Assembly: GCA_045531965.1 (NCBI GenBank)
Contig: JAZSFA010000113.1
Coordinates: 29,962 to 93,961 of the forward strand
Origin: Eubacteriales bacterium
Lineage (GTDB): Bacteria; Bacillota; Clostridia; Oscillospirales; CAG-272
Length of the DNA stretch: 64,000 nucleotides
Direction of reading: 5' to 3'
This document shows positions 10,192 through 25,239 of this stretch, in pieces; position 1 is the first letter of the stretch; every line of letters starts with the position of its first letter. The notes beneath the pieces were generated by a model that did no database searches, was not told where the DNA came from, and worked only from the letters and a program-made list of their open reading frames with translations. Position numbers and translations under genes: made by a program.

Positions 10192-11880
10192 ATGATCCTC
10201 CCCTCCCCCGCGTGGGGGGTGACGCTATCGCTTTAGCGCAAGTACAGGAGCTATAAAAATTTCAATCCACACCCCCCGCGTGGGGGGTGACCATACAAGT
10301 GATCGATGTGCTATCCACTGTAGTGATTTCAATCCACACCCCCGCGTGGGGGGTGACTAACCCCCGCGCGTCTCTCTCCACGTTCTTCACAGATTTCAAT
10401 CCACACCCCCGCGTGGGGGGTGACACAAAGCAACCGTATCGGAGGCTACGACCATTATCATTTCAATCCACACCCCCGCGTGGGGGGTGACACATGACCT
10501 TGAGCTTGATGCTCCAGGCGTATATATTTCAATCCACACCCCCGCGTGGGGGGTGACAGAAACATTAGAATTATCCGGGATAGTGACAATAATTTCAATC
10601 CACACCCCCGCGTGGGGGGTGACCTTATATACTCGATCAAAATACTTTGGAGGGCGTTATTTCAATCCACACCCCCGCGTGGGGGGTGACGTTGGAATGA
10701 AAACGCTTGACCGTATTTCTGCGATTTCAATCCACACCCCCGCGTGGGGGGTGACATTATAAATCCAACACCCCAAGATATATGTCCCGTATTTCAATCC
10801 ACACCCCCGCGTGGGGGGTGACGCGGTTGCTCCGCCGTGTATTCTTCAATTATTTATTTCAATCCACACCCCCGCGTGGGGGGTGACGATCCAAGCGATG
10901 ATGTCCCCCTTGGCATCGGTATTTCAATCCACACCCCCGCGTGGGGGGTGACCTTACGTATAAGCTTCCAAGCGATTAAAGCTAAAACATTTCAATCCAC
11001 ACCCCCGCGTGGGGGGTGACTGCTCCGTGTTTATGATAAGTATATGCAGAAGTCATTTCAATCCACACCCCCGCGTGGGGGGTGACAAAAAGACCACCAC
11101 GGCCACCAACGTAATTGCCAATTTCAATCCACACCCCCGCGTGGGGGGTGACACGGGCGGTAAAGGCGTCCCTCACTAAATCATCAATTTCAATCCACAC
11201 CCCCGCGTGGGGGGTGACGAAGGCCAAAATTCTATGATCTCTGAAGGAATAGTATTTCAATCCACACCCCCGCGTGGGGGGTGACATAGACACCTGCTGT
11301 TTTACCATCTTCATAACCATTTCAATCCACACCCCCGCGTGGGGGGTGACCTTTACAACCAACACAATCACGAATCCAACGATTATTTCAATCCACACCC
11401 CCGCGTGGGGGGTGACGACCGTGGTTCGATGTTTACTAAATCCTTTGTCATTTCAATCCACACCCCCGCGTGGGGGGTGACCTCGTAGAGGCCGCAGGAG
11501 AGGAGGTAGTACATATTTCAATCCACACCCCCGCGTGGGGGGTGACCGTATGGTGTGAAAGGTATATATGGACGTGATACAATTTCAATCCACACCCCCG
11601 CGTGGGGGGTGACTCAAAGGCCATAGCTTCACGAGCGGAAGAACGCTATTTCAATCCACACCCCCGCGTGGGGGGTGACAGTTGCGCCAGGCTTTTGCCG
11701 TCCAGCGTTTGCTTATTTCAATCCACACCCCCGCGTGGGGGGTGACCAAGATTGCAAGTAGCTCCGATAACAACTAAGATATTTCAATCCACACCCCCGC
11801 GTGGGGGGTGACGTTTCTACAAGCCAGCCTTTAGAAAGTGCAGGCATAATTTCAATCCACACCCCCGCGTGGGGGGTGAC
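10192..11880 (-). CRISPR. type I-C CRISPR array, 26 repeats and 25 spacers
   Basis: 32-nt repeat, minus sense GTCACCCCCCACGCGGGGGTGTGGATTGAAAT: a 7-bp stem plus an 11-nt ATTGAAAT-type handle, the classic I-C form. Spacers are 33-36 bp and all unique. The repeat at 10192-10223 is degenerate and the next (10259-10291) has one extra C, so the trailer is at the low-coordinate end and the leader is next to cas2. Confidence 0.97.
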
Positions 11881-12048
11881 AGCAAAAGCTCACAAAAAGT
11901 GGGCTTTGGTTTTGTGCACGTAACACAGTTTTCAATCATTTCTCCGCAAAAACCCTTTTTGGATAAGCTTCCATGCCGAAATGATTGCCTTTACAGTGTG
12001 CGAACCTCTTACGGATCTCTGTGAGCTATGGCTTCGCACGTAGCAAAA
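11881..12048 (-). promoter_or_regulatory. CRISPR leader
   Basis: 168-bp non-coding, AT-richer stretch between the cas2 stop (12049) and the newest repeat (11849-11880). Confidence 0.6.
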
Positions 12049-12339
12049 CTAAATAATCATAGGATCGTCGGGCAGATAGGTTTCCTTACAGCCAAAATGT
12101 TCGATCTTGTTATCGTATTTGTTTCCAAGATAGTAAAACCGAAGGCTATCGGTCTCCTCGTCCATGAGGGATACCAATTTGGCTTGCAGGATTCGACACT
12201 GCGCCGCGTCCAATTTACATTCAAATACCGAATTCTGCACACGCTGACCATAGTTCACACATTGCTTGGCGATCTGCCGCAGGCGTTTCTTTCCTTGCGG
12301 GGTTTCGGTATTGACGTCATAGGTTATGAGTACCAGCAT
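12049..12339 (-). CDS. cas2: CRISPR-associated endoribonuclease Cas2
   Basis: 96 aa. MLVLITYDV...RLRQIAKQCVNYGQRVQNSVFEC is the canonical Cas2 fold signature. Confidence 0.95.
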   Translation of the reverse strand: MLVLITYDVNTETPQGKKRLRQIAKQCVNYGQRVQNSVFECKLDAAQCRILQAKLVSLMDEETDSLRFYYLGNKYDNKIEHFGCKETYLPDDPMII

Positions 12340-12348
12340 AATTCCGCC

Positions 12349-13380
12349 TCACTTCCACAAAAATGGCGGGTATTCATCCAAATCCCCCCGCAGGTACCGG
12401 GCAAGCAGAAGTGCTTGGGCGTATGGGACCATCCCCCATGCCAGCTTTTCGTCCAAATAGGGGTGGGTGATCTTTTCCTTCTTTCGCTCCTGCCACTGTT
12501 TCAAGAAAGTCTTTCTGCCTGCATCCGTCAACAGCACCGCTCCGGATGCTTGGTGATCAAAGTCCTTTGCGGACAAAACACGGTTGTTGATGAGGGTCAG
12601 CACGAATCGGTCAGCCATGCAGGGACGCAGCTCCTCCATCAGGTCCAGCGCCAGCGAGCTTCTGCCGGGGCGGTCCTTGTGCAAGAAGCCAACGTAGGCA
12701 TCCAACCCCACGCTCTCCAAGGCGGACGCGCAATCATGGGTCAAGAGGCTATAGGCAAAAGACAGCATCGCATTGACGGGGTCAAGAGGCGGTCGGCGGC
12801 TCCGTTGAGTGAAAGCGAACGTATCCTTTTGCCCGAGGATCATATGATCCAGCACACCGAAATAGGCCGCCGCTCCGACTCCCTCCAAGCCCCGTAGGGT
12901 CTCGGTATCCGTACAGGCACGAATCTGAGGATACAGGTTCTTTAGGATATCCTCCGCGTTCCGTAGGGCGGAGGTATCCACCCGCAGTCCATTGTCGCGG
13001 CAGGTGCGGGCGATGCTGTGAGCCGAGTTGTACAGCTTTCCGAAGATCATATTGCGAGCGATACGACAAGCCGATCGATCGTCATCCGCCTCCCGATATT
13101 GCTGACGGCGGAGCAGAACGTTTCCATTGTTCTCGCCGCTCACCCGCGCCAGGAATCTGCCTCGCGGCGTGCAGAAGGCCAGGCCGATCCCTTTATCCGC
13201 ACAAGCACCCATCAAGGCAGGAGACGCACCCGCGTAGGAAAAGGTGACGATCTCCTGCAAGGTATGCAGAGGGTAGCGTGCCGCGATATCGTCTCCCCGT
13301 TTGGCTATCACGTTTTCTCCGTCCAAGGCCAGATAGATATCCTCACTGGTCACGAACAGGGTGTTCAAAAGCTGCTTCAT
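12349..13380 (-). CDS. cas1: CRISPR-associated endonuclease Cas1 (I-C type)
   Basis: 343 aa. Conserved Cas1 regions (NAMLSFAYSLL, LDAYVGFLH, DLMEELRP). Confidence 0.95.
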   Translation of the reverse strand: MKQLLNTLFVTSEDIYLALDGENVIAKRGDDIAARYPLHTLQEIVTFSYAGASPALMGACADKGIGLAFCTPRGRFLARVSGENNGNVLLRRQQYREADDDRSACRIARNMIFGKLYNSAHSIARTCRDNGLRVDTSALRNAEDILKNLYPQIRACTDTETLRGLEGVGAAAYFGVLDHMILGQKDTFAFTQRSRRPPLDPVNAMLSFAYSLLTHDCASALESVGLDAYVGFLHKDRPGRSSLALDLMEELRPCMADRFVLTLINNRVLSAKDFDHQASGAVLLTDAGRKTFLKQWQERKKEKITHPYLDEKLAWGMVPYAQALLLARYLRGDLDEYPPFLWK

Positions 13381-14090
13381 TCGTCCCCACTCCCTTCTTC
13401 GGTCGATCCAATACGGTCACTTCCCCTCATGGCTTCCTCCATAGATTTGTCCAGATAGTCGCCCACTCGCTTTTGCTTGAGCATTTTGGGCAAGCAATAC
13501 TCTGCCAGGGAGCAGGCGTTACACCCTTTGAAGGGCTTGACCCGGGGCGTATGACCTCGCTTGAAGCAGTCATGCATTTCGGCAAGGTAACCCCGCACCC
13601 GATCGCGCAGCTCGGCGGTGAAGATCACCTCCTCGCGGCGGCGGGTTTCTCCGTAGAACAAAGCGCCTCGTTTGATCTCACAGGACAGCATCTCCTCCAG
13701 ACACATGGCCTGCCCGCAGAGCTGGAGACGGTCAGCATCGTTTTCCTTGGGCTGACCCCGCTTGTATTCTACGGGATAGGGCTGCCACAATCCTTCCTTG
13801 TCCTGCAACGGGATCCCATCCTCGCTACGGTGGAACTCGATCACGTCGCACTGTCCCGAAACACCCAGATCACGGGATTGGATATTGACCCCTCGCAGGA
13901 TATACAGGTCTCCGCGGCTCTCCCGATCGGCGCTGTCGTGGGCCTTGCGGTGGAGGAGATCCCCCTCCACCGTTCGCAGATTTTCCGCCCAGAGCTGTTC
14001 TATGTGGATCAAGGCCCACTGTCTGCGGCAGAAGGCAAAATGCTGAAGCCCCGAGAGCTGGAGCCATTCATCCTCCCGGTACTCCATCAA
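13377..14090 (-). CDS. cas4: CRISPR-associated exonuclease Cas4
   Basis: 237 aa. RecB-like core (CDVIEF, YPVEYKRG) and a C-terminal Cys cluster (CNACSLAEYC). Overlaps both cas7 and cas1 by 4 nt. Confidence 0.9.
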   Translation of the reverse strand: MMEYREDEWLQLSGLQHFAFCRRQWALIHIEQLWAENLRTVEGDLLHRKAHDSADRESRGDLYILRGVNIQSRDLGVSGQCDVIEFHRSEDGIPLQDKEGLWQPYPVEYKRGQPKENDADRLQLCGQAMCLEEMLSCEIKRGALFYGETRRREEVIFTAELRDRVRGYLAEMHDCFKRGHTPRVKPFKGCNACSLAEYCLPKMLKQKRVGDYLDKSMEEAMRGSDRIGSTEEGSGDE

Positions 14091-14980
14091 ATCATGCGGG
14101 TGCAGGTCACGCCGGCGGGGAGAGCCGCCTCGTTCACGCTGACCTCGTAATCGATATAGGCGCGGGCGGGCAGACCGCTGTCATCCTTGCGGGTGACCTT
14201 GACCAGATCGAAGAGCTTGTGAGCGGGAGCGTTGCCGAACTCGCTGTCGTGCTTGAAGACGATCAGCTCTCTGACCGCCATCTTACCGCGGGCGGCGGAG
14301 CGGTCCAGCTCAAACATATTGATGATGGCCTGCCAGAGCAGTGCCAGATCCTCCTCGGAGAAGCCCGTGGTCTTGCGGGCCAGGTTGGCGGAGACAAAGC
14401 CCTCGCAGCGATAGAGGCCGTAGGGGACGATGTATTTGCGGCCCATCTCGGTGTTCTTGTTGGCGGCATCCTCCTCGGTGGTAATGGCGACACGGGTGAT
14501 GGTCATCTCCTGCTGGGAGATCGGCTCAACGCTACGGGCAAATCCCAGCTGTACGGGACCGCGCACCTGCCCGCAGTTCAGAGCGTCCTTCACAAAGGTG
14601 GTCATGACGGCACCGAAGGTACGGATATCAAAGTAATTCTTGCACATCCAGTCCCGAACCTTCACGTCCAGATCGGGATCGTTCTTTTTCGCGTCCTTGA
14701 CTTTCTTCTCGTCCACCCCCAGAGCCAGATAGGCCTGCTTATCGCTGGTGTTCAGGGGGGCGTTCTCCTTGATATAGATCTTGTAGCCGGGCTCGTCCTC
14801 CTTGACCGCCTCCACAAAGTTGCGGATCTTGCGCTTGAGACAAACGTCGGTCACGATCCCGAGACCGGTCTCGGGGTCTACACGGGGCATATTGCCCGCG
14901 TCGGGGTCACCGTTGGGGTTTCCGTTCTCCACATCGAACAGAATGACGAACTCGTAACGATTCTTAATGATATCAGACAT
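14087..14980 (-). CDS. cas7: type I-C Cascade backbone subunit Cas7c (Csd2)
   Basis: Start moved to MSDIIKNRYEF (GGAGG upstream). FDVENGNPNGDPDAGNMPR is the Csd2 signature. Confidence 0.9.
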   Translation of the reverse strand: MSDIIKNRYEFVILFDVENGNPNGDPDAGNMPRVDPETGLGIVTDVCLKRKIRNFVEAVKEDEPGYKIYIKENAPLNTSDKQAYLALGVDEKKVKDAKKNDPDLDVKVRDWMCKNYFDIRTFGAVMTTFVKDALNCGQVRGPVQLGFARSVEPISQQEMTITRVAITTEEDAANKNTEMGRKYIVPYGLYRCEGFVSANLARKTTGFSEEDLALLWQAIINMFELDRSAARGKMAVRELIVFKHDSEFGNAPAHKLFDLVKVTRKDDSGLPARAYIDYEVSVNEAALPAGVTCTRMI

Positions 14981-15347
14981 TTTCCTGATCCTCCTTCTTT
15001 TGATACAGAGCAATATTTTGATGATAGTAGCCTAACTGGAACGAGCCTTGCTCGGCCAGAGTCAAGCGGGCGGGGAGGGCTTCCCCAAACTTGTCCATGA
15101 TCTCGCGGATCATCTTTTCATAGTAAGGTACCAGCCAATCCTTATCCGACCCCTTCAGCTTCTTCAGGTGGCTCTTGGACAGGCGGAGCAGAATGGCGAA
15201 GATCGACGCGGGGGTCGCCGCGGCAGATACAAAATAGTGGTCTTTGACAGTCGATGCTCCGTTGGCATCGTTTTGTAGTTTCTCCAGAACGGCAAACAAC
15301 CGTCCAAGACAATACGGAACGTTGTTGGAATTCCGATTCAGGGACAT
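14973..15347 (-). CDS. cas11: candidate Cas11c small subunit translated from an internal start inside cas8c
   Basis: An in-frame ATG at 15347 is preceded by AAGGAGGT 7 nt upstream and would give a 124-aa product (MSLNRNSNNVPYCLGRLFAVLEKLQ...). Internal Cas11 translation from cas8 is established for type I-C. Confidence 0.5.
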   Translation of the reverse strand: MSLNRNSNNVPYCLGRLFAVLEKLQNDANGASTVKDHYFVSAAATPASIFAILLRLSKSHLKKLKGSDKDWLVPYYEKMIREIMDKFGEALPARLTLAEQGSFQLGYYHQNIALYQKKEDQENV

Positions 15348-16721
15348 GGTCAATACCTCCTTTGGCACGGCGGGGTGCGTATTTTTCAAGTAGTAAGCTT
15401 TGATGATGGCGGCACGGCCGCGGGTGATCGCTCGTTCGGCACGGATCCGCAGGTTCACTCCGTTCAGGAGCGTCGCTGGATACGGCGTGTCGGTCAAAAT
15501 CGCCCGCAACACATCCCCCGCCATATGCGGTGACGGAGACTTATCCTTGGACTTTTGGTTGACGGTCTCATCCAGCAGCTTCCAGACCGGAACCGTCTCA
15601 TAGGAATCGTAAGAGGGTCGAACAATTCGTAGGCGCTCCTGATGCGCCCATACGTTTTTGAGGAAGGCACCAAAGGTGTTCCGATAGAAGAGCCGCACCG
15701 AGAGTCGCGCCGCATTGGGAGATAGTCCCAAAATGTAAAAGGGGCGTTCGGGGTCCAATCTCGTTCCGTCAAGCTCCACGGGTCTCCCCTCGGCCAGAGC
15801 CTTGATCTTTTCCCACAGTTCATCCTTTGTATAGTTAGCGGGAGGATCATCATCAAAGGCGAAGCCCACCAGCTGCTCTCCGGCTGTGTTTTCTCCGTTC
15901 ATCCAGAAAAGCACCGTAGTCTCTCCGATACGAACGCGGCGGTCAACATCCTTGATCAGGTAGTTGAGAGCGGAGGTATAGGCGAAGGACGCGTACTTTC
16001 CCGTAGGGGCATTCAGGTTCTGCTCCTTACCGTAGGATGTGAAGGCGGGAGCGTTAAAAGAAACCAACGCCGCGCCCGAGGATTGAGCGCCGACAACGCC
16101 ACGGATCTGGGGATGGGTCCGCTCAACCGCTCCGTATTGGCCTGTGACCAAGCAATAGCCCACATCCTCTCCGCTGCCTCCGTAATACTCATCCCACGCC
16201 TCCGCGACCGCGGGGTCATCTGAGGCAAGGCGCCCGTCACAGCGAAACAGCAGGTTGACACCCGAGATCACGTCGTCAAAGTTATCCTTCAAGGCCGGAT
16301 GCTCCTTCGCCTCTTCGGGCTGCCAATGATCAAAAAACGCGAGTATGGCCTGCGCTGCGTCCGAATCAACACCATCCAGAATGGTGTGATGCAATTCCCG
16401 GCAACGGTCAAAGCATTCTTTCGTTCGCTTGGGCTTTCCCTTGCTGTCCACACCCAGTATGTAACCCGAATGGTCGCAAAGGAAGTTGGACTCTACGCCA
16501 ACGGTACGGGACACCTGGGCGGGGCACTTACGGGGTACAGGCTTGAAAACTGTCTTTTTCCCCATCGTCACCTCGCTCGTGGTGTGGATCGCTCGGAGCA
16601 GGTTTCCATCCCGATCAACATCCAGGATATAGGAGACCGGCACCTGCATCCAGCCGAAAGGCGGCATCTTCCCTCTCGCGGCCATGCTTTCATAAAACTC
16701 CACCAATGCCTGCAGGATCAT
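14973..16721 (-). CDS. cas8c: type I-C Cascade large subunit Cas8c (Csd1)
   Basis: 582 aa. The N-terminus MILQALVEFYE...PPFGW is typical of Csd1. Positioned between cas5 and cas7. Confidence 0.85.
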   Translation of the reverse strand: MILQALVEFYESMAARGKMPPFGWMQVPVSYILDVDRDGNLLRAIHTTSEVTMGKKTVFKPVPRKCPAQVSRTVGVESNFLCDHSGYILGVDSKGKPKRTKECFDRCRELHHTILDGVDSDAAQAILAFFDHWQPEEAKEHPALKDNFDDVISGVNLLFRCDGRLASDDPAVAEAWDEYYGGSGEDVGYCLVTGQYGAVERTHPQIRGVVGAQSSGAALVSFNAPAFTSYGKEQNLNAPTGKYASFAYTSALNYLIKDVDRRVRIGETTVLFWMNGENTAGEQLVGFAFDDDPPANYTKDELWEKIKALAEGRPVELDGTRLDPERPFYILGLSPNAARLSVRLFYRNTFGAFLKNVWAHQERLRIVRPSYDSYETVPVWKLLDETVNQKSKDKSPSPHMAGDVLRAILTDTPYPATLLNGVNLRIRAERAITRGRAAIIKAYYLKNTHPAVPKEVLTMSLNRNSNNVPYCLGRLFAVLEKLQNDANGASTVKDHYFVSAAATPASIFAILLRLSKSHLKKLKGSDKDWLVPYYEKMIREIMDKFGEALPARLTLAEQGSFQLGYYHQNIALYQKKEDQENV

Positions 16722-17380
16722 CCGATCACCCCCCCTGAATCACGGGACGGGACCCGCATAACACCATCCTCCAGCACCGCGCAGAAGAAGAGGGGACGAA
16801 TATCCTCCTTGCGTGCGTAGTCCATGTCCCACAGCATATAGCCCAGATCGCGACGTCCCTTCAGCTCTTCGGGGCAAGACGGGATCTCCTCACAGGGAGC
16901 AAAGAAAACGGGAAATTCTCTGGTTCCGAAATAGGGCTGATGGTAGAATCTGCCCTTTTCAATGCGCCTTTTGATGATGTCGCAGAATTTTCCGGGGTTG
17001 TCGCTGGGAGCCGCTTGGTCGGTCATGTCGAAGTGGGCTTCGATGACGTAGTGGACGTTTCGCAGGAGCATGGCGGCTCGCTGTTGGATATCGTCCGAGG
17101 TGGCGATATATAGCTCCCCTTGCCCCTTGTCCATGACGGTCCTGGCGCTCCGTGCGCTGGCGGTAGACTTGACCTCGTTGCGCCGTATGTTGGCGAATCG
17201 GATCGGGGCGCACACGTGGATGCGGTCGATCCGATACACGAGTCCGGGGTGCCAGAAGATGGCTTCCAGTATCCCCCTCGCCGCCGAAGGCGTCATCACG
17301 TTATAGCTGACTCGCTCGGTCTTCATCTCGGGACGTGTAAACAAGGCGTAGTCGCCCCAGACCTCTAACTTGATAGACAA
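16718..17380 (-). CDS. cas5: type I-C pre-crRNA endoribonuclease Cas5c (Cas5d)
   Basis: 220 aa. VWGDYALFTRPEMKTERVSY and PSAARGILEAIFWHP are typical of Cas5d. Confidence 0.9.
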   Translation of the reverse strand: MSIKLEVWGDYALFTRPEMKTERVSYNVMTPSAARGILEAIFWHPGLVYRIDRIHVCAPIRFANIRRNEVKSTASARSARTVMDKGQGELYIATSDDIQQRAAMLLRNVHYVIEAHFDMTDQAAPSDNPGKFCDIIKRRIEKGRFYHQPYFGTREFPVFFAPCEEIPSCPEELKGRRDLGYMLWDMDYARKEDIRPLFFCAVLEDGVMRVPSRDSGGVIG

Positions 17381-17415
17381 TTTGGATCACTCCTTTCCGA
17401 TTGGTCATTACCCAC

Positions 17416-17444
17416 ATTATAACACATGATTCTTGTTTTGGAAA
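17416..17444 (-). promoter_or_regulatory. internal promoter for cas5-cas8c-cas7-cas4-cas1-cas2
   Basis: Minus sense: TTTCCA, 17 nt, TGTTATAAT (extended -10). Lies between the cas3 terminator and the cas5 RBS (GGAAAGGAG). Confidence 0.45.
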
Positions 17445-17549
17445 TACTTTTTTGAAAAATTCCCGTCAATTCTTTGACGATTTGCCATTTTTGGCATTTC
17501 GAACAATCCACAAGACGCACCTTTGTACACATTTTAACTGTGAACCAAT

Positions 17550-17583
17550 CAAAAAAGCCACTCTGCAACCGTAGAGTGGCTTT
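17550..17583 (-). terminator. rho-independent terminator after cas3
   Basis: Minus sense: AAGCCACTCT-acggttgc-AGAGTGGCTT followed by TTTTTT, starting 5 nt after the cas3 stop. Confidence 0.7.
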
Positions 17584-17587
17584 CATA

Positions 17588-19711
17588 TTAAATAAACATG
17601 GCTTTACCTTGGTCCACCTTGACCGAAAGCCCCGTCTCCTCGCAATACATCTCCTCATTCAGCAGCGCATACACCTCACCGCCCAGATCCTCCACGTCTC
17701 CGGCATCCAGTAGGGCCTTCAACCGGTTCGGATAGACGGTTACGCCATACCGCCCCAGCTTGCGCATCAGGGTGCGGTCGATCAGGCCGCTGCGATACTG
17801 CTCGATAAGGGGGCGGGACTCCTCGGTCGGGATATAAACCGTAACCGCGCCCGAGTCGATCAATTTGAATTCATGGGCTATATCAGCGAAGGGCAGGGTG
17901 GGCTTTTTCATCATGTTCATGATGCACTTGGCGTCCTGCGCATCTTCTCCCTTCAAGAATAGGTATTCCTCAAAGTAGCTATGGATGACCGACTCCTCTG
18001 ACGGATCAAGCATCCCATTCCATACGGATCGGCACGCGCCGATTGCGGTATCCAACATGGCGGGGGTCTTCCATTCCGACTCAAATACCCACACGTGGCT
18101 CTCTTCCCGTGGCCTTACACCGTTTCGATTGCACCGTCCCGCGGCTTGCAGGATGGAATCCAGACCCGCCATCTCACGGTACACCGTGGGGAAGTCCACG
18201 TCCACGCCCGCCTCGATCAGGGACGTAGAGACTACGCGGCAGGGATGACCGTCCTTGAGACGGGCTTTAATGATCCGCAGCTGCGTTTGCCGCTCCGCCG
18301 GGGGCATGAGAGTGGACAGATGGTATCTCCCCTCCTCCTCCAGCATCCCGTACAGCTCCTGGGCAGCGGCGCGGGAATTGACGATGCAGAGGACCTGCGG
18401 TTGACGGTTCAAGCCATCGGCCAGTTCATTTTTGGCCAGCTTACCGCTCTTATGGAAGGTAATGCGCTTGAAAATCTCCCCCTTTCGCAGCTCGGGCGGG
18501 CAGATCTCCCGAGGCGTTCTTTGCAGATACTCCGCAAATAATGAGCCGAGTGCGGGCTGGGTGGCCGTACAGAGGATCGCGGTCACGTTGTAGGCTCGTG
18601 TCAGCTCCGCGATGGCGTAGACGCAGGGCTTCAGATAGGGCAGGGGGAGCATCTGGGCCTCGTCGAAGATCACCACGCTGTTGGCGATATTGTGGAGCTT
18701 GCGACAGGCGGAGGGACGGTTATCGTACAGCGACTCAAAAAACTGCACCGCTGTGGTCACCACGACCGGCATATCCCAGTTCTCGGTGGCGTATCTCATT
18801 CGTTTCTGTTTGGCGTCAAGGCTCCCCTCCTCGGCGTCATCGTACACGATACCGCTATGGTGCTCCAGTACCACGTCCTCCCCCAAGATCTCTCGAAACA
18901 CCGAAGCGGTCTGTTCAATGATGGAGGTGTAGGGGATCACGTAAATGATACGGTCTTTTCCCGCCGCTTTGGCATGGCGCAGGGCAAAAGCCAGAGAGGA
19001 GACGGTCTTGCCGCCGCCTGTGGGAACGGTCAGGGTGAAAAGGGAGCCTGCCCCTGTTTCCCCCTGCGTCTTGCAGGTGTCCAGGATCGCGCAACGGATG
19101 CGGTTGAGCTCCCCCTTGGGCAGATACCATCCGCAAGTATATTCATCCAGCCGTTGATTCATCTCATCCCACTTGGCCGCAACGTGATCCCGCGGCGCTC
19201 CCATGAAGGCGGCGGTGTCCAGAAAGTCCGCGTCAACGAGGCAGGAGTAGAGCATACGGGTATAGAAAGCCATGTGCTTCCACTCCACGGACGGTACGCC
19301 AACCGAAGGAAGCTCTACCTCCCGTGACCATGCATCGTAGGCATACTTTTTCACCCCGGTGTACCGATTCATTCTACCGTAAAAACTATCCGCGTCTGCC
19401 AGATCGTCCCGACCGCCCAAATTCATCAGCCCGCCGTGATGTCCCATTACACACATGGCGGCAATGGCTTGGCGTTTTCGGAAGCACTCGATCGCGCCGG
19501 CTGAAGCGTGATCCACCTTGGGGCCGTCTTCCACGATGCGCCGCTGGAAGCCCGCGGAATACTTGCCAATGTCATGAGCCAGCCCGCACAGCCTTCCCAA
19601 TTCGCCCGCTCCAAAGGCTTCCGCAAAGGACGCGCTCAGGGTCGCGGTACCTTCCAGATGTTCCTTGACGGATTGTACTTTGTTTTCGGTTTTATGGGCA
19701 ACGTATTTCAT
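17588..19711 (-). CDS. cas3: CRISPR-associated helicase/nuclease Cas3 (HD domain plus DEAD/DEAH helicase)
   Basis: 707 aa. N-terminal HD motifs (LAHDIGKY, MGHHGG), Walker A (PTGGGKT), DEAQ box, C-terminal helicase lobe. Confidence 0.9.
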   Translation of the reverse strand: MKYVAHKTENKVQSVKEHLEGTATLSASFAEAFGAGELGRLCGLAHDIGKYSAGFQRRIVEDGPKVDHASAGAIECFRKRQAIAAMCVMGHHGGLMNLGGRDDLADADSFYGRMNRYTGVKKYAYDAWSREVELPSVGVPSVEWKHMAFYTRMLYSCLVDADFLDTAAFMGAPRDHVAAKWDEMNQRLDEYTCGWYLPKGELNRIRCAILDTCKTQGETGAGSLFTLTVPTGGGKTVSSLAFALRHAKAAGKDRIIYVIPYTSIIEQTASVFREILGEDVVLEHHSGIVYDDAEEGSLDAKQKRMRYATENWDMPVVVTTAVQFFESLYDNRPSACRKLHNIANSVVIFDEAQMLPLPYLKPCVYAIAELTRAYNVTAILCTATQPALGSLFAEYLQRTPREICPPELRKGEIFKRITFHKSGKLAKNELADGLNRQPQVLCIVNSRAAAQELYGMLEEEGRYHLSTLMPPAERQTQLRIIKARLKDGHPCRVVSTSLIEAGVDVDFPTVYREMAGLDSILQAAGRCNRNGVRPREESHVWVFESEWKTPAMLDTAIGACRSVWNGMLDPSEESVIHSYFEEYLFLKGEDAQDAKCIMNMMKKPTLPFADIAHEFKLIDSGAVTVYIPTEESRPLIEQYRSGLIDRTLMRKLGRYGVTVYPNRLKALLDAGDVEDLGGEVYALLNEEMYCEETGLSVKVDQGKAMFI

Positions 19712-20190
19712 GGCCGCTACTCCTATGTATGCTGTCTCATTTCTCCGACCCTCTCGCTAGAGTACGGAACTATGTATAGTGTACACTTTTTTCTGTCAAA
19801 TTGCAAGTGGTTTTCAAGATTTTCAGGCATATTTCGAATGTGTTTTTGTACGAAGATGATATCAGAAAAGCCTTCGCCGTCAAGGTGAAAAAACTTCGCA
19901 GAAAAACACAAATCAACAGACACGAATGCAAACTTTTTCCTTGTACTCAAAAATTGCTTGCTCTGTACCTTGACTGCTGTAGCCTTTTCTGATGTGGGGA
20001 GGGTGCCCTTCGGGCAGAAAGGAGAGTTGTGTATGCAGAAAACACGAATAATCAAATCAAGTCAAAGCCAATTCAAGCGCGTACCAAAAGTATGCAGTGT
20101 GAGATCAAAAGTCGCCAGTCCTGTAAGTTTACATTTTGCAAGCAAGGGTGTATGCTTATGGATGAAATCATGAGAAAGGAGTTCTCACAA

Positions 20191-21708
20191 ATGAAAACAG
20201 CAGTCATCTATGCCCGCTATTCCAGCGAGCGGCAAACCGAACAGTCCATTGAAGGTCAGCTCAGAGAGTGCATGGCCTACGCAGAGCATCACGATATGAT
20301 GGTCGTAGACACATACATAGACCGAGCCATGACCGGCATCAACGACAACCGAAACGATTTTCAGCGAATGCTGAAGGACGCGCAGAAAAAGGCGTGGGAC
20401 GTCGTACTGGTCTACAAGCTTGATCGCTTTTCACGTAACAAGTACGAGATGGCGACCCATAAGAAAACATTGAGGGATTACGGTATCTCCTTAGTATCAG
20501 CCAAGGAGCATATTCCGGAAGGCCCCGAGGGGATCATTCTGGAATCGCTCCTTGAAGGTATGGCCGAATATTACTCCGCTGAGTTGGCACAAAAGGTCAG
20601 CCGTGGTCTGCGCGAGACCCGGATCAAGGGCAATTATGCCGGCGGGGGGATCACCTACGGCTATGAAGTGGTCAACAAGAAATTTCAAATTTGCGAGACA
20701 GAAGCCCCCGTGGTTATCCGCATCTATGAAATGTATGCCTCAGGCATGATCGTCAAAAACATCATCAAGATACTGACCGACGAGGGGATCCTGTACCGAA
20801 ACGGAAAACCATTTGGGAAATCGGTTATATATGGCATCCTGCAAAATGAGCGATACTCCGGTGTCTACACCCACAAGACCGAAGGAACGTACACAAATAC
20901 GTTTCCCCGGATCGTTCCGCAACACTTATTTGAAACCGTACATCTCATGGTTTCCGAGAATCGGTACGGTAAGCATCCCGAGGATGTGGTCTACCTGTTA
21001 CGGAACAAAATGAAGTGCGGATATTGCGGCAAGTCCGTCACCTCGGAATCGGGGACGTCCCGAAATGGAACCGTAGTGCGTTACTACAAATGCAGCACAC
21101 GAAAGAAGGACTCGACCAAGTGCCACAAGGCTCCGATTCGCAAGGAAATACTGGAACAGCTCATTGTGGATGCTACCGTCAAGGTGCTGGACAATCCCGA
21201 GACCATTGACATGATCGCAGATCGGGTTCTCGAAGCGCACGAAAACCGCTTGCGGGATTCGTCGGTGGTCAACATTCTGGAAGCCGAGCGGGACAGGATC
21301 CGCAAGGCGTTGGATAATATGTTACACGCCGTAGAGCAAGGCATCATTACCAGCTCCACCAAGCAACGCATTGAGGAACTGGAAGCGGCTCTGGAGGTGG
21401 CCGAGGGAAAGGTATTGATCGAGAGGTCAAAAGACAAAGTACAGATCACCCATGCGGATATCAAGAAGTTCATCCGAAAGGCTCTGAAGAAGGAGCCGCG
21501 ACTGATGATCAAGCTGCTCGTCAAGGAGATCGTCCTGTACGACGACAAGGTAGAGATCTACTACAACTGCATAGACAAGAAAGGGCCTGATGACTTGGAT
21601 CATCAGGTCTTTTGTATTTATCGGCAGGACTTAGAGGTTGATCCCAAAGAGCTTGGATTTCGGCATAATGTTGTCGGATGTAAACTGGTGCTGGAGATGT
21701 ATTTTTGA
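20191..21708 (+). CDS. large serine recombinase (resolvase/invertase N-domain plus recombinase and zinc-ribbon domains)
   Basis: Start moved to MKTAVIYARYSSERQ (AAAGGAG upstream), which contains the catalytic-Ser motif. LVYKLDRFSR; CGYCGK...YYKC zinc ribbon; coiled-coil C-terminus. Confidence 0.9.
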   Translation: MKTAVIYARYSSERQTEQSIEGQLRECMAYAEHHDMMVVDTYIDRAMTGINDNRNDFQRMLKDAQKKAWDVVLVYKLDRFSRNKYEMATHKKTLRDYGISLVSAKEHIPEGPEGIILESLLEGMAEYYSAELAQKVSRGLRETRIKGNYAGGGITYGYEVVNKKFQICETEAPVVIRIYEMYASGMIVKNIIKILTDEGILYRNGKPFGKSVIYGILQNERYSGVYTHKTEGTYTNTFPRIVPQHLFETVHLMVSENRYGKHPEDVVYLLRNKMKCGYCGKSVTSESGTSRNGTVVRYYKCSTRKKDSTKCHKAPIRKEILEQLIVDATVKVLDNPETIDMIADRVLEAHENRLRDSSVVNILEAERDRIRKALDNMLHAVEQGIITSSTKQRIEELEAALEVAEGKVLIERSKDKVQITHADIKKFIRKALKKEPRLMIKLLVKEIVLYDDKVEIYYNCIDKKGPDDLDHQVFCIYRQDLEVDPKELGFRHNVVGCKLVLEMYF

Positions 21709-21893
21709 AGAATTATACGGGATTTTCGTATCGAACCTTTGAAAAAATGCAGGTTTTCGTTATAAGTGCAGGTGGTGATCCGTCAACAAGCAAGAAGCAA
21801 ATAATGATTGTGTGACAAGGATTATTTCGGCCTCAATACGAGAAGGAACAGGGGTGATTCTAATGATTCAACTGAGGTGTTTATAAGCCAGCC

Positions 21894-21928
21894 AAAAAAT
21901 CCTAAGAACTTTGTTCTTAGGATTTTTT
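21894..21928 (+). terminator. rho-independent (bidirectional-looking) terminator downstream of the recombinase
   Basis: AAAAAAT-CCTAAGAAC-ttt-GTTCTTAGG-ATTTTTT. Confidence 0.7.
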
Positions 21929-21931
21929 CAT

Positions 21932-22128
21932 TTGTGCCGTAAGGCACAACATCGTTTGCGTGGCACACGCAACATCATTTGACCGTTAGGTCAACATCAT
22001 TGCCGCTCGCGGCACAAATGAACGAGGTTGCGACAAGTCGCAAATGATGTGGGCTATCGCCCAACGATGTTACGCCTGCGGCGTAAATGATGTTGCGCTT
22101 CGCGCAAACGGAGCGATGGCCGTTCGCT
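21932..22128. repeat. tandem array of nine sequence-distinct GC-rich mini-hairpins separated by CATCAT/ATGATG linkers
   Basis: Hairpins at 21932-49, 21956-72, 21979-94, 22001-14, 22028-43, 22050-63, 22070-86, 22093-107 and 22112-28. Stems are 5-7 bp and most close with TTG...CAA. Linkers are CATCGT, CATCAT, CATCAT, then a centre, then ATGATG, ACGATG, ATGATG. Period is about 22 bp. Function unknown. Confidence 0.6.
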
Positions 22129-22146
22129 TGGATTGCTGATTTTTCG

Positions 22147-22175
22147 TTGATTTTTAACCAAAAGTATGATATAAT
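22147..22175 (+). promoter_or_regulatory. promoter of the four-helix-bundle gene
   Basis: TTGATT, 17 nt, TATAAT, followed by GGAAAGGTGG RBS and ATG 22200. Confidence 0.5.
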
Positions 22176-22199
22176 TAAATTTGGAAAGGTGGTGTGGTT

Positions 22200-22556
22200 A
22201 TGAAAGAGGATAAGCTCGGTGATCTGTCTATGGAATTATCCGTAGAGGTTTTGAAATTAACAAAAGAGTTACGCACAAAGCACGAAACCGTTATCTCAAA
22301 CCAAATCGGCAGAAGCGCGACGAGTATTTGTGCTAATATTGCCGAAAGCAAATACGCTCATAGCCGCGCCGATTTTATTGCAAAGCTTGAAATTGCGCTC
22401 AAAGAAACAAACGAAACAAGCAAGTGGCTTGAAATGCTTTGGAAAAGTGAATATATAGATGAAGCAAGGCATAAAGCAATTGATAAGAACTGTTCAACTA
22501 TAAGATTTTTGCTTGTTCGGTCCATTCAAACAGCAAAGCAAAATGCTAACAAATAA
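22200..22556 (+). CDS. four-helix-bundle protein (family of 23S rRNA intervening-sequence proteins / Avd-like)
   Basis: QIGRSATSICANIAES...ADFIAKLEIALKETNETSKWLEML matches the conserved core of this family. I prefer ATG 22200 over GTG 22194. Confidence 0.75.
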   Translation: MKEDKLGDLSMELSVEVLKLTKELRTKHETVISNQIGRSATSICANIAESKYAHSRADFIAKLEIALKETNETSKWLEMLWKSEYIDEARHKAIDKNCSTIRFLLVRSIQTAKQNANK

Positions 22557-22572
22557 TTTTCAAAAACTTTTC

Positions 22573-22600
22573 TTGCATTTCCGTTCCTTTTCGGTATAAT
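22573..22600 (+). promoter_or_regulatory. orphan promoter in front of a start-less gene fragment
   Basis: TTGCAT, 16 nt, TATAAT, then AAAGGAGA. No intact ORF follows. The open frame ending at TGA 22852-22854 (...EEEKYAYDIIQKAYEINEKKIAMLDFDKNKKLLEDYHRWLDSRQK) has no usable start codon. Confidence 0.35.
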
Positions 22601-22870
22601 GTGTTTACCACCCGAAAGGAGAACGAAATTGTCATAATCAAATTTATTACCATACTATCAAGTAAAATTAACCCTGCTGCGATGCAAACTGTCTTTTCTC
22701 GAAAATCCGCCGAAAACCGAGGAAGAGAAATACGCCTATGATATTATTCAAAAAGCGTATGAGATCAATGAGAAAAAGATAGCAATGCTTGATTTTGATA
22801 AGAACAAAAAGTTGTTAGAGGATTATCACAGGTGGCTTGATAGCAGACAGAAATGATAACGAAAGGCGGT

Positions 22871-23338
22871 ATGTATATGAACAACATAGAAATTTACGAT
22901 TATATTTTATCAAGAGTACAAGCAGAGCTTTTGGCATTCGGATATAGTTGAAGCGGAAAAAGCGGATTGTTTTACCGCTATTCTGCGGATAAAAAGGTCG
23001 GATGTGTGATTGAAATGCAAAAATCTGCATTTAATTATCCCGGAAGCTATTCATTTACTTTTAATCTTGGTTGTATAGCTCTTTATAATTTACGCGGATA
23101 CAATAAAGAAAAACTTACGCTTAGCACATTAAAACTCGCTCTTACATTTCAAGCTGGTGTTGAGCGCATCGGTATTCTTTGCCGTGGCACAGATTATTGG
23201 TGGGACATCACCGATGAAATTATGAAAGAATATAGTTTAGAAGAATACTACGATAGGTTCATTCAAAATGATATTAAAAAGTGTGCCGCTCACCTTGATG
23301 AGTTGGCAGCAAAAAAGGAAGAAGTTTATTCAAAATAA
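22871..23338 (+). pseudogene. DUF4304-like gene interrupted by an in-frame TGA
   Basis: ATG 22871 (AAAGG upstream) reads MYMNNIEIYDYILSRVQAELLAFGYS, then TGA at 22949-22951, then continues in the same frame as SGKSGLFYRYSADKKVGC... to 23338. The ORF track reports only the downstream part (22967-23338). Confidence 0.55.
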
Positions 23339-23368
23339 TATGTCATCTATTTCGGTCGCGTAACACAG

Positions 23369-23420
23369 ACCTTACTAATTTGAACCTACTTTTATGGTAG
23401 GCGGGTTAGTAAGGTTTTTC
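23369..23420 (+). terminator. rho-independent terminator
   Basis: ACCTTACTAA ... TTAGTAAGGT with an inner CCTAC/GTAGG pairing, followed by TTTTTCTTTTTT. Confidence 0.7.
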
Positions 23421-23558
23421 TTTTTTACAAATGATATGAATCCCGATTTTTTAGCCTTTCGGCGTGTCCAGCGTAGCATAGCTCTCGCAGCTGTCAACGT
23501 GAAAAATTATCGCTGAAAAAGGCAAAATCTTAAGAATCATTAAGAGTTTATAAATCCC

Positions 23559-23587
23559 TTGACCCCTCACACCGAATATGATATAAT
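23559..23587 (+). promoter_or_regulatory. promoter of the YwaF-like membrane protein gene
   Basis: TTGACC, 17 nt, TATAAT. It overlaps the ORF-track start at 23559, which argues for the later ATG at 23649. Confidence 0.5.
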
Positions 23588-23648
23588 GCTTTGGCGTTCG
23601 GCACTTTACCTGCCTAATGCTCAACGATCAATTTCAGAGGTGCCTTTT

Positions 23649-24467
23649 ATGAACAAAATGCTCGACTGGACTTGGGGTGACATCAACAACGGCGACGTCG
23701 GCCCGGGCGCATTCAGTTGGTTTCACCTGCTTTGGATCAGTATCATGATCATCGCTTGTGTCGCGATTGCGTCGACCGTCGCGCGCAAACACAGCGTCAA
23801 AGCTGACCGCATTGTCATTTCGGTTTTATCGGTTATTCTGATCGGTTGCGAGGTTTTCAAGCAGCTTTTCTGGTTTGAATTCTATGGCTATTACCGTTTC
23901 GAAATCTTCCCTTTCCAATTCTGTTCCGTACCGATCTACGTGGCGATCTTCGCCGCGGTGATCCCCTGGGACAAAGTGCGTGAAGTCTGTTATCGCTTTC
24001 TTGCCTTTTACGGCATCATCGGCGGGCTCGCTGTCATGCTGGTACCCAACGCGGTGCTGTATACCTATTTCGTGCCCATGTCGCTCCACGCCATGCTTTG
24101 GCACACGGTTCTTGTGGTCATGGGTGTATATCTGATGATTTCCCGCGGATATGGCAAGCATTTTCGTGAAATGTTCACCCCAGCCGCCATATTCTTGGGT
24201 TTTGTGGCTCTCGCCATCATAGGAAATATTCTAGTATACAAGCTTCATCTTAACACCCCTGCGTGCCAACCGGGAGATCGCCTCAGTATGTTCTACATCT
24301 CCCCCTACTATCCCACCGAGCTGCCGCTTTTGGGTATAGTACAAAAGATATCCTATCCCCTGTTCCTGCTCTGTTATCTTCTTTTCTTCAACGGCTTCGC
24401 ATCCATTGTTTGGGTTGTGACTCATCTCATCCGTAAGCTCCAAAGAAAAGGCAGCAAAAACGCATGA
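23649..24467 (+). CDS. YwaF/TMEM164-like integral membrane protein
   Basis: Start at MNKMLDWTWG (AGAGGTG upstream). Multi-pass membrane protein with the FPFQFCSVPIY motif. Paralogous to 54653-55471. Confidence 0.65.
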   Translation: MNKMLDWTWGDINNGDVGPGAFSWFHLLWISIMIIACVAIASTVARKHSVKADRIVISVLSVILIGCEVFKQLFWFEFYGYYRFEIFPFQFCSVPIYVAIFAAVIPWDKVREVCYRFLAFYGIIGGLAVMLVPNAVLYTYFVPMSLHAMLWHTVLVVMGVYLMISRGYGKHFREMFTPAAIFLGFVALAIIGNILVYKLHLNTPACQPGDRLSMFYISPYYPTELPLLGIVQKISYPLFLLCYLLFFNGFASIVWVVTHLIRKLQRKGSKNA

Positions 24468-24522
24468 TTTTTATCAATTCAAACCGCCATTTATGATTGA
24501 AGAATCGCTTCCCGCACTAAAG

Positions 24523-24559
24523 AATCTTGATCATTTCTACTTGAAATGATCAAGATTTT
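24523..24559 (+). terminator. hairpin terminator overlapping the queH promoter
   Basis: AATCTTGATCATTTC-tactt-GAAATGATCAAGATT followed by TTTA. The right arm also supplies TTGAAA-17-TATAAT (24541-24569) for queH. Confidence 0.55.
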
Positions 24560-24597
24560 ATGCTATAATAAGGGTAGCCACAGATAGGGGGGATTTC

Positions 24598-25239
24598 ATG
24601 AAAAAGAACTATCATGCCGAAACAGAGGCACTGATCGCTACGCACCAAGCGAATGGCGAAGTGCCTACCCTGATCCTCCACAGCTGCTGCGCGCCGTGCA
24701 GTAGTTACGTTTTGGAGTTTCTGTCGCAGTATTTTAAAATCACGGTTTTTTACTACAATCCCAATATTTATCCGGACGAGGAATATTTCCACAGAGTCAA
24801 GGAACAACAGGCATTTATCCGCCGATTCCCTGCCCGCCATCCCATTGATTTTGTGGAAGGTGACTTTGACAAGGACAGCTTTTATGCCGCAACCAAAGGC
24901 ATGGAACACCTGCCTGAAGGCGGCGCTCGCTGTTTTAGTTGCTATGAACTGCGCTTGCGTAAAACTGCTGAACTTGCTCAAGCACAAAACGCTGATTATT
25001 TTTGCACAACCTTGTCCATCAGTCCTCTGAAAAACGCCGAAAAGCTCAACGAGATCGGTATGAAACTGAGTACCGAATACGGGATCCGTTATCTTCCTTC
25101 CGACTTCAAAAAGAAAAACGGCTACAAGCGATCGGTGGAGATCTCCCGCGAATACGGCATGTACCGTCAGGATTATTGCGGCTGTGTTTTTTCCATGCGC
25201 GAGCGAAAAAATCAAGAAGATAAAAGCCAAAACCATTAA
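24598..25239 (+). CDS. queH: epoxyqueuosine reductase QueH (DUF208)
   Basis: LHSCCAPCSSYV, FYYNPNIYP and CFSCYELRL Cys motifs are typical of QueH. Confidence 0.85.
   Translation: MKKNYHAETEALIATHQANGEVPTLILHSCCAPCSSYVLEFLSQYFKITVFYYNPNIYPDEEYFHRVKEQQAFIRRFPARHPIDFVEGDFDKDSFYAATKGMEHLPEGGARCFSCYELRLRKTAELAQAQNADYFCTTLSISPLKNAEKLNEIGMKLSTEYGIRYLPSDFKKKNGYKRSVEISREYGMYRQDYCGCVFSMRERKNQEDKSQNH

Follow-up and report, generated by a model that had tools for sequence, protein, structure and literature searches.

What is the array of short hairpins that stands in front of a small four-helix-bundle (4HB) protein gene in a gut Clostridia genome, and what might read it? The stretch analyzed here, called the window throughout, comprises 64,000 nucleotides (nt) of a Eubacteriales bacterium (assembly GCA_045531965.1, contig JAZSFA010000113.1, positions 29,962 to 93,961 of the forward strand). 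Positions 21932-22128 of the window hold nine GC-rich mini-hairpins joined by 6-nt linkers, and a gene for a 118-aa protein of the TIGR02436 / PF05635 23S_rRNA_IVP family, the putative partner of the array, follows at 22200..22556 on the plus strand. From the analysis, it was revealed that the array is a member of a large, almost undescribed family of DNA elements of gut Clostridia. It is a linker variant, previously uncatalogued, of the catalogued but functionally orphan Gut-1 kind of Rfam, a kinship missing from the original prediction, which had been made for this DNA from its letters alone. In addition, the linkers of the family change together with the 4HB protein, which suggests that this protein reads them.

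Layout of the array and its family

The nine hairpins and their linkers were found, by direct reading of the sequence, exactly where they had been reported, and all nine stems differ from one another. The left block (21926..22014, plus strand) contains H1 (21932-49), H2 (21956-72), H3 (21979-94) and H4 (22001-14), joined by CATCGT (21950-55), CATCAT (21973-78) and CATCAT (21995-22000). The right block (22028..22128, minus strand) consists of inverted units, H5 (22028-43), H6 (22050-63), H7 (22070-86), H8 (22093-22107) and H9 (22112-28), with the linkers ATGATG (22044-49), ACGATG (22064-69) and ATGATG (22087-92) in plus-strand reading. Degenerate linkers lengthen the array on both sides, with TTTCAT (21926-31) giving about four linkers in total on the left, and ATGAAC (22018-23) and ACGGAG (22108-13) giving about five on the right; the start-to-start spacing of the linkers is 20-26 nt. 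The polarity of the units switches at the centre CAAATGAACGAGG (22015..22027, plus strand), and CAAATGAACGAGG / CAAATGAACGATG is kept in homologous arrays. On the plus strand, the loops of the left block are of the G..A type (GTAA, GCA, GTTA) and those of the right block are mostly T..C (TATC, TGC, TTC), which is G..A on the minus strand. A repeat search also detected a 13-nt perfect inverted repeat, TTCATTTGTGCCG / CGGCACAAATGAA, around the left block (21927-39 and 22010-22), and the centre holds an inverted copy of the first linker and first stem arm. A perfect bracketing repeat (≥10 nt) occurs likewise in 13 of 35 arrays with other linker types, and its GTGCC / GTGTCC variants co-vary in many loci. 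H8 (TTGCGCTTCGCGCAA) is almost invariant at its place in homologous arrays.

The array departs clearly from chance. The folding comparison proposed with the original prediction gave z = -5.4 for RNA of the plus strand, z = -4.8 for RNA of the minus strand and z = -5.3 for single-stranded DNA, and 0 of 200 dinucleotide shuffles folded as well as the 211-nt array stretch. Nine non-overlapping perfect hairpins (stem ≥5 bp) per 220 nt were counted in the array, against a maximum of six elsewhere in the window and of four to six in 20 block-shuffled windows. The 12-mer CAACATCATTTG (≤2 mismatches) forms a cluster at the array only, and the window holds one array copy. Pairing between linkers, the putative junction ladder, is present in the minimum free energy (MFE) folds; ladder pairing alone would not demand identical linkers within an array, yet the linkers are identical.

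Transcription signals stand on both sides. A bidirectional intrinsic terminator (21894..21928), with A6, a 10-bp stem, a TTT loop and T6, corresponds to a 16-nt perfect inverted repeat (21894-21909 / 21913-21928) and is the first component of a conserved module. On the other side the array abuts the -35 element of a sigma-70-type promoter, TTGATT-17 nt-TATAAT with an upstream TG (22147..22175, plus strand; 10 of 12 matches plus the TG in a promoter scan), and the same scan found no plus-strand promoter 5′ of the array.

A pattern scan with CAACATCRTTTG-N8-13-CAACATCRT, using one genome per species, matched at least 119 loci, nearly all in metagenome-assembled genomes (MAGs) of uncultured gut Clostridia of human and ruminant origin, assigned to Eubacteriales, Acutalibacteraceae and Oscillospiraceae. 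Arrays found by this CATCRT-linker scan are referred to as type 1. The common order of a locus is often a tRNA ending in CCA, then a terminator of A-tract, stem and T-tract, CATTTG, the first hairpin, CATCAT-linked hairpins, the centre (GGCACAAATGAACGAKG), ATGATG-linked hairpins, the last hairpin TTGCGCTTCGCGCAA, the promoter TTGATT-17 nt-TGnTATAAT and the ribosome-binding site (RBS) GAAAGGCGGTG. The promoter and the RBS GAAAGG(C/T)GGTG are kept in homologous modules even where the downstream gene changes. The flip of the linkers at the centre, first noticed in this one array, proved to be a general feature of the family, and left and right linkers are always mutually complementary, across linker types. 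These types (ATGATG, GTGATG, ATGAAG, GTGAAG, RTGAAAT and ATGATAT) are uniform within one array. Arrays with different linkers coexist on one contig (loci L121 and L036), and therefore the linker type is not set by a host-wide factor. The block order in the clade of the window array is reversed relative to all other clades.

The type-1 arrays contain 166 unique stems, drawn from a common vocabulary of modules that is reshuffled between loci. A same-strand tRNA gene stands directly before 37 of 90 type-1 arrays, representing 11 tRNA identities, and tRNA-like 3′ fragments ending in CCA precede other arrays. Near-identical terminators were found behind different tRNAs (tRNA-Asn at one locus, another tRNA at two others) and in non-tRNA contexts. 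Before many arrays, nine loci among them, the tip of the terminator hairpin is conserved as TTTGTC-(n3-5)-GACAAA, and the outer pairs of its stem covary. Several arrays occur within 8 kb in L121, which has four, and in L034; many lie at contig ends, and up to three pattern-positive contigs were found per MAG, the MAGs being fragmentary. A single locus, L026, has a one-orientation array of seven CATCAT-linked hairpins that ends about 10 nt before the RBS of dnaN, leaving no room for a promoter; the array would there lie within the transcript or belong to the dnaA-dnaN origin region. A dispersed extragenic repeat unrelated to the neighbouring genes had been named beforehand as an outcome that would refute the original prediction. 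This outcome was obtained in part: the motif is multi-copy and spread over many genomes and contexts, but the arrays are tied to 4HB genes and tRNA flanks and are not generic. A blastn search of the array region against phage and plasmid collections gave no match, and the pattern scan of viral contigs gave ten matches, all coding or simple tandem repeats with no hairpin array.

The closest catalogued relative is Gut-1 (RF01706), whose consensus is three variable hairpins joined by GUGAAAU. Both have short GC-rich variable hairpins with an invariant A/U-rich linker, a heptamer in Gut-1, and both come from gut Clostridia metagenomes. The architecture of Gut-1, at least three short variable hairpins with such a linker, is also that of the window array, with the difference that its linker is CAUCAU/AUGAUG and its block order is reversed. 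The Rfam models gave no Gut-1 match in the whole window at the gathering threshold (50 bits for Gut-1), and none at E ≤ 10 in 21600-23700, where only chance matches at the level of microRNAs fell on the array. Among the fetched loci, three (L036, L023 and L121) match Gut-1. L036 (4775-4984) consists of tRNA-Trp, a terminator, four GTGAAAT linkers, a centre, three ATTTCAC linkers, a promoter, an RBS and a 4HB gene; its Gut-1 match is the left half of the dyad array, and the right half matches on the minus strand at a sub-threshold 35 bits. Rfam describes one half, three hairpins, as a small RNA of unknown function, and because the match covers one half of a dyad array, this annotation looks incomplete. 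The context is shared as well, since L036, L052 and L121 have a tRNA, a terminator, an array, a promoter or RBS, and a 4HB gene. In L121 the linkers before the 4HB gene are of a third type, ATGAAAT/ATTTCAT, which was also found in L028, L076, L023 and L117. The main text and 200 of the 438 supplementary files of the source paper (Weinberg 2010, PMC2864571) describe Gut-1 only as found in human-gut sequences and rate it likely RNA from covariation; in the same portion, no function is assigned to it and the dyad layout, the tRNA link and the 4HB link do not appear. A literature search on TIGR02436, PF05635 and Gut-1 yielded no functional study.

Association of the arrays with four-helix-bundle genes

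The 4HB protein of the window matches PF05635 with 92 bits (cut-off 33.8; E = 3.5e-26), TIGR02436 with 97.4 bits (cut-off 24) and the structure 2RLD in PDB with E = 7e-24; the solved homologues 2RLD and 2GSC each have five chains per deposited entry. Downstream of the type-1 arrays, 20 of 84 open reading frames (ORFs) encode 4HB proteins, and the others are singletons including dnaN, thioredoxin and membrane proteins. Starting from the gene, a linker-flip array was observed upstream of all 26 4HB genes in the pattern loci, five of which were unselected and have other linkers (GTGAAAT, ATGAAAT and GTGATGT). A sample chosen by protein only comprised 80 of more than 560 metagenomic 4HB loci, and the 59 with at least 260 nt upstream were scored, a linker flip being defined as two or more copies of one 6-mer and, after them, two or more copies of its reverse complement. 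The flip was present upstream of 49 of the 59 genes, compared with 8 of 70 control regions of the same loci; six or more linkers were present in 35/59 against 0/70, and the median hairpin count was seven against two. The 4HB gene had been named among the neighbours of the array, and the protein-selected sample shows it to be the relevant one. A tRNA gene precedes 20 of 44 protein-selected cassettes, with 12 tRNA identities.

The cassettes vary in several respects. Some arrays stop 12-26 nt from the ATG, without room for a promoter. The stop codon of the 4HB gene often overlaps the start codon of a variable downstream cargo gene (AAGGAG..AAAATGA; L036, L050, L058, L075 and L121). L052 and L053 have an identical 4HB 3′ end and cargo gene and differ in the 5′ part of the 4HB gene and in array type, which indicates recombination inside 4HB genes. 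A human-gut phage-like scaffold, MT835590, has an ATGAAAT/ATTTCAT hairpin array upstream of its 4HB gene. Distant 4HB genes have plain, hairpin-free repeats upstream, as was seen in a Treponema plasmid, in Monoglobus and in three viral-contig loci. On the plasmid pTS1 of Treponema saccharophilum, about 25 tandem RTGAAAG/GGAAAG copies and then about six inverted copies (CTCTCCGCTYTCC) stand directly before the 4HB gene (1640-1985 of locus L132), a hairpin-free counterpart of the linker flip. In Monoglobus pectinilyticus (NZ_OY725736.1, 80876-81193), an unannotated 4HB-like ORF, apparently truncated with 35 aa before a stop, lies in a type I restriction-modification (R-M) operon, within the 466 nt that separate hsdS from hsdR, and TAATTAGGAATGAG occurs twice before it.

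The clade of the window 4HB protein has 1359 matches in gut assemblies of the European Nucleotide Archive, of which the best 120 are all at least 81% identical and lie mostly on contigs of 0.5-1.3 kb. Since most of these contigs are so short, the array cassettes are suggested to break short-read assemblies, and the modules, compact units of terminator, insulator and promoter, probably cause such breaks in gut metagenomes. The window protein belongs to the same superfamily (PF05635/TIGR02436) as Avd of diversity-generating retroelements (DGRs) and the ORFs of 23S rRNA intervening sequences (IVSs). It was rejected as an Avd, since no reverse transcriptase domain and no pair of template and variable repeats lie nearby and no Avd structure was matched by profile or detected by sequence. 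It was also rejected as an IVS ORF, the window containing no rRNA gene and the 4HB gene following a tRNA terminator; a further difference is that nothing like the hairpin array is described for DGRs or IVSs. A PADLOC search matched none of the window's 4HB, recombinase, DUF4304 and TMEM164 proteins to a defence-system model.

The 4HB clades correspond to linker types. In a modest sample, taken with no phylogenetic correction, the base before TGA in the linker (A or G) was best predicted by 4HB positions 4, 7 and 2, with mutual information relative to entropy of 0.89, 0.76 and 0.64, respectively, and at most 0.36 for the other columns. In all 46 cases with linker A residue 4 is N/D, and in 15 of the 17 with linker G it is S; G is mostly accompanied by R/K at residue 7. 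The residue-4 rule repeats inside each of three linker-tail classes, and it also held in later viral-contig loci, several of which resemble sequences already in the sample. In the covarying N-termini, Ser is encoded by TCN and AGY codons and Arg by CGN and AGA, and because both codon families are used for each, the constraint acts on the protein; pairing of linker RNA with the first 4HB codons was rejected as the source of the covariation on the same ground. If the 4HB protein reads the array, this covariation yields concrete mutational predictions.

A possible reader of the linkers and the alternatives

The form of the hairpin units bears on what is read. Of 378 unique segments between linkers in the family, 295 form hairpins, compared with 13% of shuffled segments, and selection on pairing and not on sequence, which had been proposed from the window alone, is upheld by this count. 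Among 44 unique units, 91.7% of the cells are paired, against 67.8% in shuffles and 27-40% in slid-register controls, and double changes were observed in 71 cells, against 24.8 in shuffles. The loops measure 3 nt (54%) or 4 nt (33%) and never less than 3 nt. The linkers had alternatively been taken for iterons on one face of the helix, an idea that the unphased family-wide spacing of 15-28 nt contradicts; with the spacing off the helical register and loops never shorter than 3 nt, the spacers are suggested to loop out. Blocks with xxTCAx linkers have G..A loops (46:0 and 33:3) and blocks with xTGAxx linkers have T..C loops (32:0 and 32:0), an association with Fisher p = 1e-22 and 3e-16. Since loop polarity flips with the linker, the units are oriented and the two blocks are 'sense' on opposite strands, which points to a two-strand element at the DNA level and is hard to reconcile with a single-strand RNA. 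Among about 1700 pairs, 10 are G.T and 12 are A.C; as no bias was found, the wobble-pair strand test is not usable as positive evidence for RNA, and short GC hairpins may avoid wobble pairs anyway.

We propose, with a probability of roughly 45%, that the array is a DNA-level recognition or operator array for a putative cognate 4HB oligomer and that it controls or insulates the abutting promoter. In uncultured gut Clostridia (Oscillospirales-like), the array would act in cis within a small cassette prone to recombination, usually placed directly after the CCA end of a tRNA gene. Such a cassette consists of a bidirectional terminator, two inverted blocks of oriented units (each made of one GC-rich mini-hairpin and one A/T-rich linker of 6-7 nt), a sigma-70 promoter abutting the last unit, an RBS, the TIGR02436 4HB gene and often a coupled variable cargo gene. 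The linkers would serve as sequence-specific recognition sites of the cognate 4HB protein, and the variable hairpins would loop out as spacers, giving a constant linker-linker geometry whatever the stem length. About four to five linkers per block may be read by a 4HB oligomer, with the blocks read on opposite strands, as extruded hairpins or transiently single-stranded DNA. The sequence comparisons show the layout, the family membership, the covariation of the stems, the flip in polarity, the ties to 4HB genes and tRNA flanks and the covariation of protein residues with linker bases; that the protein binds, to which form of the nucleic acid and with what regulatory effect, is inferred. A bound 4HB protein would autoregulate or insulate the promoter from which the 4HB and cargo genes are transcribed, as in C-protein/C-box or ParR/parC. 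If this is true, it would represent a mode of recognition in which invariant linkers alternate with looped-out hairpins of arbitrary sequence on both strands, and it would explain how tRNA-adjacent accessory cassettes are insulated or controlled in abundant uncultured gut Clostridia.

Such a layout is reminiscent of the two named systems. Like parC of plasmid R1 and the C-boxes, the array has two clusters of about four to five short repeats beside the promoter of a gene for a putative binder, and the regulator gene comes first in an operon and is translationally coupled to a downstream, often toxic, gene; the 4HB gene between hsdS and hsdR in Monoglobus adds to the likeness with C-boxes of R-M systems. 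In R1 parC/ParR and C-protein/C-box, ribbon-helix-helix or helix-turn-helix proteins bind phased duplex repeats without hairpin spacers. In contrast, the arrays studied here have unphased spacing (15-28 nt), covarying hairpin spacers and a four-helix-bundle protein with putative binding.

A wider claim, which we hold to be doubtful, is that 4HB proteins of the TIGR02436 and 23S-rRNA-IVS type, stand-alone relatives of Avd present in thousands of genomes, are in general sequence-specific readers of nucleic acid in orthogonal, self-contained cassettes and that Gut-1 is half of such a DNA element and not a small RNA. 4HB pentamers would then bind about four to five hairpin-spaced heptamer linkers per block, on opposite strands of the dyad array. 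An N-terminal code would specify the linker base, with residue 4 N/D for A and S for G and residue 7 R/K for G, and the cassettes, homing to 3′ flanks of tRNA genes, would exert control over their variable cargo. The two orphans, Gut-1 and PF05635/TIGR02436, become testable together. The protein family is widespread, including the ORFs of 23S rRNA IVSs, and its members repeatedly lie inside loci of clustered regularly interspaced short palindromic repeats (CRISPR) and R-M loci; no function is assigned to it in the literature found.

Several points weigh against an operator array read by the 4HB protein. We know of no demonstration of sequence-specific DNA binding by the 4HB fold, and extruding hairpins of 5-7 bp from duplex DNA costs energy. 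No 4HB gene lies downstream of 64 of the 84 type-1 arrays, and one of these arrays is directly before the dnaN RBS (L026). The array would be transcribed at some loci, because a distance of 12-26 nt to the ATG leaves no room for a promoter. The AlphaFold2 monomer model is of low confidence (predicted local distance difference test score 64), its alignment being shallow. The N-terminal coding part is the stretch of the 4HB gene linked most closely to the array, which may account for some of the covariation, and 4HB genes do recombine internally (L052 versus L053). Lastly, the most conserved 4HB residues (Q35, R38, S39, T41, S42, A45, N46, I47 and E49) cannot carry the specificity because they are invariant across linker types.

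Four other explanations were weighed against it. The array could be a Gut-1-like structured noncoding RNA, made by read-through from the tRNA or as the 5′ leader of the 4HB mRNA, with its linkers paired into a branched rod and possibly bound by the 4HB protein as an Avd-like RNA chaperone. Avd, a relative in fold, works with RNA in DGRs, and folding of the window array as RNA gives a stable MFE structure in which distant linkers pair. The complementarity that left and right linkers keep across linker types, the arrays that reach to 12-26 nt from the ATG without a promoter, the L026 array directly before the dnaN RBS, and the rating of Gut-1, which has the same architecture, as likely RNA from covariation (PMC2864571) all agree with it. 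However, G.U is as rare as A.C among the pairs, which is atypical of RNA helices, and the flip of loop polarity and linkers makes each block 'sense' on a different strand. In the window, moreover, the array stands behind a strong terminator and ahead of a consensus promoter, and no plus-strand promoter lies upstream, and pairing does not need identical linkers within an array; on balance, an RNA of this kind is unlikely. Somewhat less probable still is an extragenic repeat, structural or selfish, resembling repetitive extragenic palindromes (REP) and bacterial interspersed mosaic elements (BIME) and lacking a dedicated partner protein, with the 4HB gene as a frequent neighbour and possible roles in handling of supercoils and gyrase, insulation of transcripts or protection of 3′ ends. 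The family resembles such elements in being multi-copy and dispersed (as many as three pattern-positive contigs in one MAG, and four arrays in 8 kb of L121), in lying between transcription units after terminators and often at contig ends, in reshuffling a limited vocabulary of hairpin modules and in lacking a downstream 4HB gene at 64 of 84 type-1 arrays. Against it stand the single copy in the window, the excess of linker flips before protein-selected 4HB genes over controls (49/59 vs 8/70), the presence of several linker types in one genome, each beside its own 4HB clade, and the residue-linker covariation at the protein level.

Of about the same low probability is a recombination or mobility site, in which the inverted blocks, built like two abutting transposon ends or like the arm sites of attP, would bring about insertion of the unit of terminator, array and 4HB gene beside tRNA genes. 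The ends of Tn7- and Mu-type elements are laid out as inverted blocks of direct repeats; to our knowledge, arm or end sites of this kind have no hairpin spacers. The position directly after tRNA genes in both samples (37/90 and 20/44), the tRNA-like fragments ending in CCA and the near-identical terminators behind different tRNAs are as such a site would predict, and so is the presence of 4HB genes inside unrelated operons and 23S rRNA IVSs (PMC3936711) and in the hsdS-hsdR gap of Monoglobus. However, the unit encodes no transposase or integrase, and both blocks lie on the same side of the gene. The original prediction had looked to the large serine recombinase gene that ends about 220 nt away as a possible partner, and the array could then be its attachment (att) or accessory site. 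Proximity alone speaks for this, and we give it next to no likelihood. Large serine recombinases use att sites that are single imperfect dyads of 40-50 bp, and the array occurs free of a recombinase in a second MAG contig (L011, GCA_045541375.1), where it is 99.4% identical and follows an intact tRNA-Gln, as well as after tRNAs at dozens of further loci. The link to the recombinase is thereby in effect refuted, and an att site was rejected as an identity of the array, which is not bounded by the recombinase-bearing element.

The original prediction did not recognize the array as CRISPR, REP/BIME, attC or oriT, and the comparisons agree with this. CRISPR arrays have identical repeats of 25-40 nt alternating with unique spacers of similar length, and here no more than 6-12 nt stay constant, the variable parts being palindromes of 9-19 nt from a common vocabulary. 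REP units are near-identical imperfect palindromes of about 35 nt in hundreds of copies, linked to RAYT transposases. The array shares with REP/BIME the form of an extragenic mosaic of alternating palindromic units with defined short linkers, its place after transcription units and a variable number of units. In contrast, its nine stems all differ, as do the 166 stems of the type-1 set, its linkers are conserved, its copy number is apparently low (one per 64 kb) and its linked gene is a 4HB gene. An integron attC is a single long imperfect hairpin with R and L boxes and extrahelical bases, recombined by IntI. Like attC, the arrays appear to be recognized by structure and not by sequence, form DNA hairpins with strand polarity and flank variable gene cassettes; in contrast to it, the window element has at least eight mini-hairpins with invariant linkers, and no tyrosine integrase lies in its neighbourhood.

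The tRNA-Gln junction and other features of the window

The boundary of the recombinase-bearing segment was located by comparison with L011, which encodes an identical 4HB protein. Window positions 21888-25189 align to L011 9689-12990, and nothing aligns to the left of 21888. In L011, the terminator, array, promoter and 4HB gene stand behind an intact tRNA-Gln(CTG) gene (9620-9695) with no recombinase. The homology begins 7 nt before the 3′ end of this tRNA gene, so the last 7 nt of tRNA-Gln(CTG), CCAGCCA (21888..21894, plus strand), mark the right junction of the insert. This insert, by the alignment a separate segment of at least 21.9 kb that entered tRNA-Gln at its 3′ end, has the large serine recombinase gene (20029-21708, with Resolvase, Recombinase and Zn-ribbon domains) at its right end. 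The array is not part of it, because the alignment to the recombinase-free L011 already begins at 21888. The terminator at 21894-21928, previously assigned to the recombinase gene, belongs to the tRNA/array module, the gene having stopped at 21708. No tRNA body was found anywhere in the window, and the tRNA-Gln gene seems to have been split or moved elsewhere.

A complete type I-C CRISPR-Cas locus (10199-19711, minus strand) may belong to the same insert. It contains cas3 with HD and helicase domains (17588-19711), cas5d (16718-17380), csd1/cas8c (14973-16721) and further cas ORFs to about 12050, all on the minus strand, and a CRISPR array (10199-11903) of about 26 repeats (GTCACCCCCCACGCGGGGGTGTGGATTGAAAT on the minus strand). 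Downstream of the 4HB gene, low-GC accessory genes (22557..24467, plus strand; GC 0.39-0.42) comprise a second promoter, small ORFs, and, from Pfam matches, a DUF4304 ORF with a TTG start (22967-23338) and a TMEM164-like acyltransferase (23559-24467), and they are collinear with L011 at 99.4% identity up to 25189. The DUF4304 region (22860-23338) looks frameshifted, with a good RBS and an ATG at 22878 in another frame that runs into a stop after 24 codons. Farther away, a T-box leader (RF00230, 110 bits) was detected at 39617-39887 on the minus strand, upstream of the ORF at 37886-39517.

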